From contig CM000152.2 in assembly GCA_000004695.1 (NCBI GenBank), positions 512,001 through 576,000 on the forward strand: DNA of 64,000 bases, written 5' to 3'. The DNA comes from Dictyostelium discoideum (taxonomy: Eukaryota). The notes under the pieces were generated by a model. That model was given only the letters and a program-made list of their open reading frames with translations, did no database searches and had not been told where the DNA came from. A program made the position numbers and the translations under genes. This document shows positions 537 to 3,209 of this stretch, piece by piece. How positions within the stretch are numbered: position 1 is the stretch's first letter; each line of letters begins with the position of its first letter.

Positions 537-1659
537 TTATTCATCTAGTTGATGAATTGGGAAATAAGTTTGTAAAAGTTTTCCATAAATTTGATAATCT
601 TCTTTGGTGAAGATACAAAATATAATTCTATCTATTTTTTTATGATGAATTTTCAACCAATTAGAGATGGTTGATAGGGCGATATGAGCAGCATCTAAAC
701 TTGGGAAACCATATACACCAGTTGCAATACAACAAAAAACAACAGTTTTGAGGTCATTTTTTAAAACGATATCCAAACAAGACTCGTAACATTTCTTTAG
801 AGTATCTGGATTTTTATCCATTGGACCAACAGTATGAATTACATATTTTGCTGGTAATCTATAACCTCTAGTGATTACTGCTTTACCAAAGTCACATCTA
901 CCAAAGACTTTACACTCCCTAACGAGACCAATACCAGCTGCCTTATGAATTGAGCCATCGATACCACCACCACCCAACAAAGAGGGTCTGGCTGCATTCA
1001 CAATTGCATCGACTTCCAATGTTGTAATATCACCACCAAATAAACAAAGTTTTTTATTCAAATATGCACTTGGCTCGATCTCATTATTTGGTTTTGGAAC
1101 TCTATGTCTGTTATTCTCTAAAAATTGATACCAACTCGTTAATTGATCCCATGTTTTATAATCGTTACCACAAACATATAATTTTCTTTTCTTTTCTCTA
1201 AATTTAGGATCACTCATATCTAAATCATCTGCCATCATATCTTCTTCACTCTCACCTATACTATTTGAACTTGATGATTCAAATAAACTTTCATCATTAA
1301 ATTCCATTTCATATTTCTTTTTATTTGTTTGTTGTTGCTGTTTACTAATACTATCAAAATCTTTATTATTATTATAATTATTACTATTATTGCTATTACT
1401 ATTACTATTATTATTATTATTCTTTTGAAATGGTTTAAAACTAGCTACAATTTCACGTTTTATATTTCTCCTTTTAGTTGTATCATCAGTTCTTCTTTGA
1501 ACAAAAGCATTATAATCTATAATTTTATCCTCTTTTCCAATTCTAATTATTAAAGATTTTTCTGCATTTTGGTATCCACATTCAATAGTTTCATTTATTT
1601 CTGAATTATATTCTTCCCAACCTGAATCACTTTGCCAATACCATTTACCTGAACCTTGA

Positions 1660-1730
<71 letters not shown>

Positions 1731-2700
1731 GTTATTATTATTATTTGATGAAGAGGATTTTTGAGTAGTTGATGAAGTTGTATTTGTATTTGATGTTTTT
1801 GGTGGTGTTGTTGTTGTTGGTTTTAGTGGTACATTAGAAGTTGTTTTTGGAGTTGAAGTTGTATTTGTATTTGTTGTTTTTATTGGTTCACCTTTTCTAA
1901 CAGGTCTAACTTTTTGGTTATCATCATATCTTCTTTGAAGTAAATTCTCTAAATCTACAAATCTATCATCATCAATTTGACATCTTTTATTTCCTTTTTT
2001 AACTGATTCATCCAATTTTTGAGAATCTGAATCTGAATAATCTCTCCATGTTCCATTATCTTCTCTCCATTGCCATTTTTTACTATTATTATTATTATTA
2101 TTATTGTTGTTGTTGTTGTTATTGTTGTTGTTGTTGTTGTTATTGTTGTTGTTATTGTTGTTGTTACTGTTCCTGCTGTTACTGCTGCTGTTATTATTAG
2201 ATGGTGTTGATGGCTTTGGGGGTGTAGTACTACTTTTAAACATTGAAAATGCATTACTAAATTTAGAATTTTGATTGCTTGAGGAAGAACTTGAATTTGA
2301 ATTTGAATTTGAATTTGAATTTGAATTTGAACCTGGTTTAAATTTAGATTGTTCACCAGTTAAAGAATTTGGAACAGAAGATAATGGTAAATTAATTGGA
2401 ATTCTACGAATTTCTCTTTGTTTTAAAAGTGAATCATATCTTTTTTGTTTAAAAGTTTTAAAGTCGATATATCTTTCTTCATCGATTCTAATATCTTTTG
2501 ATTGTTTTTTATAAGCTTCTTCAATTTGATACATCTTTTCAACATCATAACTCTCCCAACCACTATCGGATCTCCATTGCCATCTATTTGCCAATTCATC
2601 AGAGTTTATTACTGGTTTTGATTGACTTGCTAATTCCTCTTCAATTGATTCATAAACAGATGGATCAATATCAATATCATCATCATCATCAATTTGAATA

Positions 2701-2744
<44 letters not shown>

Positions 2745-2791
2745 GTTATTGTTATTGTTATTATTTGTCTTTTTAAATGGTTGTGGATTAC

Positions 2792-2846
<55 letters not shown>

Positions 2847-3209
2847 GTTATTATTATTGTTATTGTTGTTGTTATGATCATTATCATCAAATTTTCTTTT
2901 TTGTACAGATTTTGGTGTTAAAATTACAGCATTATTAATTTTAACTCTAGAGTCTAAATCTTTTGGTGTTTCAGTCTCTTCATCACTATAAACAAATGTA
3001 CCTTCATCTTTTTTATTTTTGTTGTAATTGTTATTATTATTATTTTTATTATTATTTGATTGATTAAAGAATGATAAATCGTCTGTGTCTTCGTCATTGT
3101 TGTTATTATTATTTCCATGTGGTTGTTGGGAATTTGAGTTATTTGAGCTATTTGAATAAAAACTTCTCATTTTATTACCAAAACTATTTGTTTTATCATC
3201 ATTTGACAT
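537..3209 (-). CDS. Three WWE domains followed by a C-terminal MacroD-type macro domain (ADP-ribose/poly-ADP-ribose reader-hydrolase candidate), 890 aa, single exon
   Basis: Single uninterrupted ORF. It contains three copies of the WWE signature: W-x-W-R/Q-SDSGWE-x-Y...R-x-D (RWQWRSDSGWESYD, KKWQWREDNGTWRDYSDSD, GKWYWQSDSGWEEYNSE), each followed by an I-D-x...QRRYDD-like tail. The C-terminal 170 aa ([34 protein letters not shown]...GYRLPAKYVIHTVGP...VFCCIATGVYGFP) align almost residue-for-residue with human MacroD1/MacroD2 catalytic macro domains. Poly-N, poly-T and poly-S linkers are typical of Dictyostelium. Confidence 0.85.

Follow-up and report, generated by a model that had tools for sequence, protein, structure and literature searches.

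Three WWE modules joined to a MacroD-type macro domain with a modified NAAN motif in a Dictyostelium discoideum protein

Mono-ADP-ribose linked to Asp and Glu is erased mainly by MacroD enzymes, which are drug targets in viruses and whose catalytic mechanism is still debated. Among human proteins, only PARP14 is known to combine WWE and macro domains. RNF146 and the DTX proteins contain WWE domains, and macro domains have not been described in them (PMC11269756); the first-pass annotation of this DNA named them as contexts where both domains occur together, which is not supported as stated. The architecture of clade 3 PARPs, with macro, WWE and PARP catalytic domains, occurs in Amoebozoa, where pARTg adds a U-box (PMC4245714, PMC5087659). 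Moreover, bacterial fusions of ARH3-like and MacroD-like domains have been described as an ‘all-in-one PAR eraser’ (Perina et al. 2014, PMC4245714). Competent MacroD1/2-like domains are reportedly marked by a Gly-rich catalytic loop, an Asp/His dyad, an active-site arene and a NAAN motif (PMC11490716). The second Asn of NAAN coordinates the 2''- and 3''-hydroxyls of the distal ribose (PMC7729036, PMC7050489) and accepts hydrogen bonds from the backbone amides of the catalytic loop; its change to Ala leaves other MacroD-type enzymes catalytically inactive, probably because the ribose is then misplaced (PMC7729036). Among solved WWE-ligand complexes, the contacts made by a stacking aromatic residue, an adenine-binding Gln and an Arg at the proximal phosphate are universal, and the Tyr at the proximal phosphate corresponds to Y144 in RNF146, Y1658 in HUWE1 and Y809 in TRIP12 (PMC11269756). 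The iso-ADP-ribose specificity of RNF146 involves the Tyr107 hydroxyl, Arg110, Trp114 and Lys175, which contact the distal ribose and phosphate, and the WWE domains of HUWE1 and TRIP12 prefer ADP-ribose or ADP over iso-ADP-ribose (PMC11269756).

The locus described here lies in a window of 64,000 nucleotides of D. discoideum DNA, in a setting of approximately 11% GC flanking the coding sequence, and encodes a protein of 890 residues without interruption, as seen in the list of open reading frames and the translation. Its features are as follows.

537..3209, minus strand: complete single-exon coding sequence from ATG to stop, with the stop codon at 537-539 (open reading frame list and translation)
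2769..2900, minus strand: KRK...PFKK motif, bipartite-NLS-like, aa 104-147 (ortholog comparison)
2391..2594, minus strand: WWE module 1, aa 206-273, Pfam 40.7 bits and fold match; Trp212, Gln255, Arg265
1881..2087, minus strand: WWE module 2, aa 375-443, Pfam 46.9 bits; Trp381, Gln425, Arg435
1443..1655, minus strand: WWE module 3, aa 519-589, Pfam 50.8 bits; Trp525, Gln571, Arg581
555..1196, minus strand: MacroD-type macro domain with the MacroD N-terminal helical extension, aa 672-885 (PDB sequence matches)
678-1001, minus strand: Pfam Macro core, aa 737-844 (Pfam)
987..989, minus strand: codon AGA, Arg741, replacing the second Asn of NAAN, MacroD2 Asn92 (alignment and codon reading)
945..974, minus strand: Gly-rich catalytic loop G746-G749 and Asp751/His755 dyad (aligned to MacroD2)

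This protein is almost certainly UniProt Q54YH9, already catalogued and uncharacterised, since the adjoining open reading frame (3488..3895) is identical to D. discoideum AX4 DDB_G0278231 / Q54YH8 and Q54YH9 itself is named in a figure legend of Gunn et al. 2016. The identical neighbour also bears out the first-pass attribution of this DNA to Dictyostelium. It is thus almost certainly an earlier annotation and not a new find; a literature search for Q54YH9 returned Gunn et al. 2016 alone and no experimental data on the protein, and one under presumed gene identifiers gave no result. As Asn makes up 21% of the residues, with long homopolymer runs, and as an exact look-up in a collection of 15 billion proteins gave no match, the possibility of an artefact was considered, in the form of a pseudogene, of an erroneous sequence at codon 741 or of domain calls caused by low complexity. 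We regard this as extremely improbable. The 2.67-kb reading frame is uninterrupted, the domain E-values of 1e-10 to 1e-57 come from segments free of low-complexity sequence, codon AGA is two substitutions away from AAT/AAC, and the architecture and the Lys/Arg residue are common to five orthologs, which effectively refutes a sequencing error or a pseudogene. The protein also aligns colinearly over its whole length with the orthologs of T. lacteum, C. fasciculata and A. subglobosum. The motif KRK-x(9-33)-P[LF]K[KR] was present in all four full-length dictyostelid orthologs, with a spacer of 9 residues in A. subglobosum and 11 in T. lacteum, and a poly-Asn expansion separates the two halves in D. 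discoideum; we predict from this pattern a putative role in nuclear localisation.

Analysis of the whole protein with Pfam, accepting E-values up to 1, yielded Macro (120.3 bits, aa 737-844) and WWE (103.9 bits over three stretches) only, and no PARP, RING, HECT or U-box domain was found in the 890 residues, which rules out a PARP14-like or E3 context. The first-pass annotation had read the locus as a stand-alone fusion of three WWE modules with a MacroD-class macro domain, and this architecture was borne out by Pfam, which showed neither a PARP nor an E3 domain, and by MacroD2 and MacroD1 as the best solved matches. The modules are joined by long, flexible linkers rich in Asn, Ser and Thr, and the N-terminal 112 residues, a low-complexity region, gave no significant Pfam match. 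The distribution of the WWE-Macro combination was judged from the best 150 matches of an exhaustive full-length search. Three WWE modules and a macro domain are kept in four other dictyostelids (Tieghemostelium, Cavenderia, Acytostelium and Synstelium), with modules 1 to 3 orthologous by position between species, and the Pelomyxa ortholog has two WWE modules and a macro domain. The Lys variants of Amoeba proteus and Pyxidicula consist of the macro domain only, with no WWE partner, and none of six other long MacroD relatives (P0171, P0178, P0188, P0190, P0193 and P0160) carried a WWE domain. Word-indexed homology searches with the concatenated WWE modules and with a 16-module profile gave no matches and missed even the known ortholog P0002, such short diverged domains being beyond the method.

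Scanned separately, all three modules scored above the gathering cutoff of the WWE family (Pfam PF02825, 21.1 bits), and the W-x-W blocks were present as first quoted: WQWRSDSGWESY at aa 210, WQWREDNGTWRDY at aa 379 and WYWQSDSGWEEY at aa 523. WWE1, the module that was modelled, gave an AF2 model with a pLDDT of 95.7; its top 22 Foldseek PDB matches were all WWE domains, and its best fold match was the TRIP12 WWE domain, with a TMq of 0.86. The best PDB sequence match of WWE2 was the TRIP12 WWE domain (E 4e-4), and that of WWE3 was the RNF146 WWE domain (E 1.2e-5). In the alignment, the stacking Trp, the adenine-binding Gln and the phosphate-binding Arg were invariant in 16 of 16 amoebozoan WWE modules. 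For the equivalent of RNF146 Y144, the fourth universal contact, hhalign shows a one-residue deletion and three alignment methods disagree; the flanking motif R-[Y/F/L]-[I/V]-D, including its Arg, is conserved. The RNF146-type set of iso-ADP-ribose-specific residues was absent from all three aligned modules. Position 107 of RNF146 is Trp in every amoebozoan module aligned, position 110 is Asp in 13 of the 16, among them all three from D. discoideum, and positions 114 and 175 are variable. The earlier proposal of docking on PAR through iso-ADP-ribose is therefore not upheld. Judged from the aligned residues, the pockets resemble the HUWE1/TRIP12 pattern, in which the residues for adenine and phosphate contacts are kept and the RNF146 specificity set is lost.

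The macro domain scored 120.3 bits against Pfam PF01661, with a gathering threshold of 22, over the full profile (1-118). Its best solved relatives, over aa 672-885, were MacroD2 (4iqy, E 2.4e-57) and MacroD1 (2x47, E 5.5e-56), whereas the matches of other classes were far weaker (GDAP2, 7e-27; PARP14, 9e-19; macroH2A, 4e-16), and no TARG1, PARG or ALC1 chain was among the 60 matches listed; MacroD1/2 is the closest class in this comparison. The domain is 48% identical to MacroD2 across 212 columns, and the alignment to MacroD1/2 begins at aa 672, approximately 50 residues N-terminal of the Pfam core, and so includes the MacroD-specific extension. The best NCBIfam matches were protein-ADP-ribose hydrolase and O-acetyl-ADP-ribose deacetylase models, all under their equivalog cutoffs. 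By these matches, the domain belongs to the MacroD-type class and to its MacroD1/2-like branch. G746-G749, D751 and H755 align with MacroD2 G97-G100, D102 and H106 and are invariant in 12 of 12 sequences of the amoebozoan clade that carries Lys or Arg in the NAAN motif. Likewise conserved in all 12 members are D727, N738, A739, A740, the Gly and Tyr of ATGVYGFP, which represents the G[V/I/A][Y/F]G loop, and the active-site arene, a Phe in the column of MacroD2 F224. All four features of a competent domain are thus present except the last Asn of NAAN. The catalytic stretch quoted in the first-pass annotation has to be amended in that its loop reads GGGGIDG and not GGGGVDG, and in that NAA is followed by Arg and not by the Asn found in all solved MacroD enzymes; in a proper alignment the Gly-rich loop, Asp751 and His755 were recovered, and the Asn92 equivalent was Arg741, which by the refutation criterion of that annotation counts in part against its reading.

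The motif here is NAAR (N738-A-A-R741), and the corresponding residue is Asn in MacroD2, MacroD1 and the T. brucei and T. cruzi macrodomains. The equivalent column is always Lys or Arg in the clade, whose lineages span Dictyostelia, Archamoebae and Tubulinea and which is monophyletic in a neighbour-joining tree. In an alignment with 12 clade sequences, it is the sole column of the whole domain that separates the amoebozoan clade from the N-type enzymes, and none of the other pocket residues changes along with it. No solved or assayed MacroD enzyme was found with Lys or Arg in that position, and a literature search on N174A/D184A found nothing. A single Arg variant is also present in Anaeramoeba, where it may reflect convergence or gene transfer. 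Since the column is restricted to Lys and Arg, is the only diagnostic one and defines a monophyletic clade, this pattern indicates a selected functional replacement rather than decay. A covalent mechanism like that of the TARG1 Lys was rejected, since clade members use either Arg or Lys in this place.

We propose, at roughly even chances, that the protein is an ADP-ribose-tethered MacroD-type mono-ADP-ribosylhydrolase with a modified distal-ribose site. Each WWE module would bind the ADP or ADP-ribose moiety of modified proteins, at PAR chain ends or in clustered mono-ADP-ribose, and the three modules would jointly tether the protein through avidity. The C-terminal MacroD domain would next take the terminal ADP-ribose and hydrolyse the ester bond that joins it to Asp or Glu through the substrate-assisted, water-mediated route proposed for MacroD enzymes. 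Arg741, in place of the Asn that holds the 2''- and 3''-hydroxyls of the distal ribose, is predicted to take over with its cationic side chain, probably donating equivalent hydrogen bonds and adding a positive charge beside the scissile bond; a point against the proposal is that Arg and Lys are unable to accept the hydrogen bonds of the loop amides as Asn does. With no further effector domain in the protein, the macro domain alone qualifies as a candidate output. The idea that a WWE array delivers a MacroD eraser is reasonable, with an architecture conserved in Dictyostelia and Pelomyxa, but the eraser activity proposed in the first-pass annotation cannot be assumed, because an Asn-to-Ala change at the site of Arg741 kills activity in other MacroD-type enzymes.

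The same loss of activity, and the dual role of the Asn in coordinating the 2''/3''-hydroxyls and bracing the catalytic loop, could also mean that the change to Arg inactivated the hydrolase and left a tetravalent ADP-ribose binder of three WWE modules and one macro domain, a rather unlikely reading in our estimate. Such a protein would, with the same low likelihood, cap, shield or scaffold ADP-ribosylated proteins and leave the mark in place. Many macrodomains are purely readers (PMC7050489), and the conserved residues do not prove catalysis, because they double as binding residues. However, the GDAP2-like macrodomains, with no reported catalysis, lost the catalytic residues, the arene and NAAN together (PMC11490716), whereas here all such features bar one residue are invariant across Dictyostelia, Archamoebae and Tubulinea. 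Moreover, the Macro-only Lys variants of Amoeba proteus and Pyxidicula lack WWE and hence the added reader modules, and a reader without an effector domain has no obvious output.

The charge of the replacement residue may bear on the substrate as well. A cationic Lys or Arg might suit the pocket of an active hydrolase to an anionic leaving group or substituent instead of Glu/Asp esters, which we judge a little less probable than a loss of activity; equally doubtful candidates would be phosphate-linked ADP-ribose on DNA or RNA ends, ADP-ribose-1''-phosphate and O-acetyl-ADP-ribose. ADPr-RNA, ADPr-DNA and OAADPr are already known substrates of MacroD1/2, with MacroD2 scored +++ on ADPr-RNA (PMC7050489, PMC11920425), and the interchange of Lys and Arg suggests an electrostatic or hydrogen-bond-donor role rather than that of a nucleophile. 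At least three catalytic variations have already been proposed inside the MacroD-like class (PMC7729036). On this pattern of residues, the amoebozoan enzymes, the WWE-tethered one described here among them, might tentatively be viewed as a further variation, in which Lys or Arg replaces the supposedly indispensable Asn of NAAN and retunes the distal-ribose site. The retuning could, again as an unlikely prospect, be directed at phosphate-linked ADP-ribose (DNA/RNA ends, ADP-ribose-1''-phosphate) or at stabilising an anionic leaving group, and the WWE array might, on a similarly speculative footing, give a PAR/MAR-guided action unseen in animals. The WWE array, however, suggests targeting centred on proteins or PAR, and a co-varying pocket residue, expected for a substantial change of substrate, was not observed.

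A natural change from Asn to Lys or Arg throughout a clade, with the other active-site residues frozen, amounts to a ready-made experiment on the role of this Asn. Activity of the amoebozoan enzymes would mean that the Asn is dispensable and that a cation can stand in for it; inactivity would mean that an entire eukaryotic supergroup converted its MacroD to a reader. A reader-eraser fusion would in turn show a targeting route for a mono-ADP-ribosylhydrolase, which is not understood for human MacroD1/2. Since Dictyostelium is genetically tractable and its ADP-ribosylation-dependent DNA damage response is well studied, the question is directly testable.

Compared with known systems, the macro domain shares with human MacroD2 and MacroD1 the Gly-rich loop, the Asp/His dyad, the adenine-binding Asp, the GxYG loop, the active-site Phe and the N-terminal extension. 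It differs in Arg741, where these have the NAAN residues Asn92 and Asn174, and the protein, unlike MacroD1/2, has three N-terminal WWE modules, long low-complexity linkers and an NLS-like motif. RNF146, a PAR-dependent E3 ligase with RING and WWE domains, follows the same design, in which a WWE reader brings an effector to ADP-ribosylated proteins, and its WWE fold was matched with a TMq of 0.82-0.88; its effector is a RING with one WWE domain, whereas here it is a macro domain with three, and Tyr107, Arg110, Trp114 and Lys175 are not conserved in the amoeba modules. The modules resemble the WWE domains of HUWE1 and TRIP12 in that the stacking residue is a Trp and acidic side chains of the beta-loop-beta region take the place of RNF146 Arg110, although the phosphate-binding Tyr809 of TRIP12 contrasts with a one-residue deletion beside a conserved Arg here, and those WWE domains are attached to a HECT ligase and the amoeba modules to a hydrolase-type domain.

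PARP14 and the Dictyostelium pARTg likewise hold macro and WWE domains in one polypeptide, but they have a PARP catalytic domain, and pARTg also a U-box, neither of which is present here, where WWE precedes Macro and the macro domain is MacroD1/2-like (E 1e-57) and not PARP14-like (E 1e-19). As in the bacterial ARH3-MacroD fusions, a MacroD domain is joined to a second ADP-ribosylation module in a composite PAR-processing protein; the bacterial partner is a second hydrolase, whereas here it is a reader, the WWE domain.

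The 890-aa WWE-macro protein is encoded by a single uninterrupted ORF of coding-type composition (20 to 38% GC, against approximately 11% GC in the intergenic DNA on either side). Asn accounts for 21% of its residues, and its domains are joined by long homopolymer linkers. The features of the window considered here are as follows.

Features of the window
537..3209, reverse strand: uninterrupted ORF of the 890-aa protein (ORF list and translation)
2769-2900, reverse strand: KRK...P[LF]KK motif, aa 104-147 (ortholog comparison)
3488-3895, reverse strand: DDB_G0278231 / Q54YH8 ("transmembrane protein"), 135 aa (exact match)
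4517-5431, forward strand: 304-aa ORF, N-terminal DnaJ domain (75 bits), poly-Thr/Ser tail
5463-6560, reverse strand: 365-aa ORF, calponin-homology (CH) domain (48 bits), then a coiled-coil-like segment

Pfam analysis of the whole protein gave a Macro match of 120.3 bits at aa 737-844 and WWE matches totaling 103.9 bits in three stretches, and no other family, including PARP, RING, HECT or U-box; the first 112 residues had no Pfam match. When the WWE modules were scanned singly with the low-complexity linkers taken out, all three (40.7, 46.9 and 50.8 bits) exceeded the 21.1-bit gathering cutoff. WWE1 was modeled with AlphaFold2 on an input of 16 amoebozoan modules; the model had a mean pLDDT of 95.7, and its top 22 Foldseek matches in the PDB were all WWE domains (TRIP12, TMq 0.86; DTX1, RNF146, HUWE1, Deltex, PARP14 and ZAP). 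The closest solved relatives of the macro domain were human MacroD2 (4iqy, E 2.4e-57) and MacroD1 (2x47, E 5.5e-56), with the Trypanosoma brucei and T. cruzi macrodomains next; matches to GDAP2, PARP14, macroH2A and viral macrodomains were much poorer. Since the MacroD alignment starts at aa 672, it also covers the MacroD1/2-type N-terminal extension. The fusion of three WWE modules with a macro domain, proposed in the first-pass annotation, was thus confirmed; RNF146 and DTX, cited there as cases of WWE and macro co-occurrence, are WWE proteins without macro domains.

The neighboring ORF at 3488..3895 matched D. discoideum AX4 DDB_G0278231 exactly, which bears out the organism assignment. Its product, Q54YH8, has an Asn-rich N terminus, a hydrophobic C-terminal half and no Pfam family, and a 136-aa variant is present in "Dictyostelium cf. 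discoideum." Exact translations of the DnaJ and CH-domain ORFs were not found in the protein collection, suggesting that the annotated DnaJ model probably differs (e.g., by an intron or extra exon) and that the CH-domain model probably reaches beyond the ORF. An exact look-up of the WWE-macro protein in protein collections likewise gave no match, and neither of two large protein searches turned it up or any close relative (more than 50% identical), for instance from D. purpureum, although the product of the neighbor is present. Gunn et al. (2016) listed six D. discoideum macrodomain proteins, with Q54YH9 among three whose macrodomain was already annotated (PMC5087659). Because our macrodomain gene adjoins Q54YH8, its product is almost certainly Q54YH9. 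In the literature searched, we found Q54YH9 in Gunn et al. alone, where its function is not addressed (PMC5087659); Perina et al. (2014) recorded a D. discoideum MacroD homologue without remarking on its architecture, and the protein is not covered in a review of DNA repair in Dictyostelium. It is therefore catalogued but uncharacterized.

An exhaustive phmmer search, run with the full-length sequence on 1.84 billion cluster representatives and with matches typed by Pfam scans and exact look-ups, returned five long proteins scoring well above the Macro-only matches.

Proteins sharing the WWE-macro architecture
Tieghemostelium lacteum DLAC_05799, 802 aa: three WWE and Macro
Cavenderia fasciculata DFA_09777, 837 aa: three WWE and Macro
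Acytostelium subglobosum XP_012759400, 797 aa: three WWE and Macro
Synstelium polycarpum, truncated gene model, 543 aa: two WWE detected and a truncated third, partial Macro
Pelomyxa schiedti (archamoeba) KAH3764436, 723 aa: two WWE and Macro

The first homology search found WWE only in the Synstelium protein among its best 120 matches; the word-indexed search did not recover the three full-length dictyostelid orthologs, which came out of the exhaustive one only. From first Met to stop, the D. discoideum ORF aligns colinearly with these three, which supports a single-exon gene model. Moreover, the WWE modules group by position (W1s, W2s and W3s each together) rather than by species, indicating that the triple array is older than the dictyostelid radiation. 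No other long MacroD relative scanned for WWE carried one. An artefact is effectively excluded as an explanation of the protein. In the Synstelium ortholog (P0002, EP01133_P008700), LLGGGGI runs straight into GPTDSDKNDLRSCY, with approximately 60 residues of the macro core gone and WWE3 truncated, which probably reflects an error in splice prediction and not a true isoform. Four eukaryote-like phmmer matches (P0126, P0127, P0143 and P0129) contain MacroD-type domains in tandem, two or three per protein, with canonical NAAN motifs, P0126 being a near-perfect internal duplication of approximately 330 aa.

The KRK...P[LF]KK motif is kept in all four dictyostelid orthologs and resembles a bipartite nuclear localization signal, which might be consistent with a chromatin or DNA-damage role. 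The spacer between its halves is 9 to 11 residues long in both A. subglobosum and T. lacteum and consists of approximately 30 Asn in D. discoideum, a homopolymer expansion within a putative functional motif.

Solved WWE complexes share four ligand contacts, namely, an aromatic stacked on adenine (Trp, or Tyr107 in the case of RNF146), Gln153 hydrogen bonded to adenine, and Tyr144 and Arg163 at the proximal phosphate (PMC11269756). The iso-ADP-ribose specificity of RNF146 lies in the Tyr107 hydroxyl, Arg110, Trp114 and Lys175, positions at which HUWE1 and TRIP12, which prefer ADPr/ADP, have Trp and acidic residues (PMC11269756). The stacking Trp, adenine Gln and phosphate Arg were invariant in the 16 amoebozoan modules (in D. 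discoideum, W212/Q255/R265, W381/Q425/R435 and W525/Q571/R581 for WWE1 to WWE3). Thirteen of the 16 carry Asp at position 110, and conservation is lacking at positions 114 and 175; the modules therefore look ligand competent and of the HUWE1/TRIP12 rather than the RNF146 type, so that docking through iso-ADP-ribose was not supported. At the Tyr144 site, profile-profile alignment (98% probability) placed a one-residue deletion between conserved R-[Y/F/L]-[I/V]-D flanks.

In the macro domain, the stretch between GDIT and AAG shares 28 of its 34 residues with MacroD1/2, as the near identity reported by the first-pass annotation implied, but this masked the one substitution of consequence. Asn92 of MacroD2, the second Asn of NAAN, aligns with Arg741 (register fixed by MacroD2 Asp102 and His106), whose AGA codon is two substitutions from either Asn codon; the annotation had named missing catalytic residues as refuting evidence, and this applies in part, Asn92 being replaced and the Gly loop, Asp and His present. 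NAAN is intact in each of the four solved MacroD1/2-like enzymes aligned, and among 121 best homologues the column holds Asn in 113, Lys in 5, Arg in 2 and Ser in 1. The seven Lys/Arg sequences form one clade in a neighbor-joining tree. The clade includes Macro-only Lys variants from the Tubulinea Amoeba proteus and Pyxidicula operculata, several metagenomic sequences, and one Arg variant from Anaeramoeba flamelloides, which we take to lie outside Amoebozoa. In this last protein (P0239, KAJ6228079, 485 aa), the adenine-binding Asp is Asn and the HT/TG loops differ, and its NAAR could reflect convergence or gene transfer.

The second Asn of NAAN coordinates the distal ribose at the 2'' and 3'' hydroxyls and also supports the catalytic loop (PMC7729036; PMC7050489); its change to Ala abolishes activity in other MacroD-type enzymes (PMC7729036). 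A catalytically dead tetravalent reader would fit that loss, yet we consider it unlikely. When 12 clade sequences, orthologs added, were compared with MacroD1, MacroD2, TbMDO and a Capsaspora protein, position 92 was the sole diagnostic column of the domain. The clade retains D78, N89, A90, A91, G97-G100, D102, H106 and the TG[V/I]YG[F/Y]P loop (MacroD2 numbering), and the F224 column is aromatic throughout (Phe, or Tyr in three members). The NAAN motif, arene, Asp/His dyad and catalytic loop are jointly regarded as marks of catalytic competence (PMC11490716). As one supposedly essential residue is now a cation and all else is strongly constrained, the domain fits neither the textbook MacroD pattern nor that of a decayed enzyme. 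An active enzyme with a shifted substrate, such as phosphate-linked ADP-ribose, seems slightly less likely than a reader. We favor, with roughly even confidence, a tethered eraser of ADP-ribosylation, and the reader-plus-eraser logic proposed earlier holds in general terms. The three WWE modules, spaced by presumably disordered linkers of approximately 75 to 100 residues, would dock by avidity on the ADP/ADPr moieties of PARylated or multiply MARylated proteins, and the MacroD domain would then take protein-proximal ADP-ribose off Asp or Glu, with Arg741 assuming the distal-ribose contacts and bringing positive charge near the scissile ester.

Overall, the protein is real, conserved, and catalogued but unstudied, and it combines a MacroD-type domain, whose NAA(K/R) active site is specific to its clade, with an array of WWE modules predicted to serve in targeting. 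No description of a MacroD variant with Lys or Arg at the second Asn of NAAN was found in the literature searched. The design principle is familiar; the natural swap of an "invariant" Asn is of direct relevance to how MacroD enzymes work, which is still unsettled, and occurs in an organism tractable for tests.
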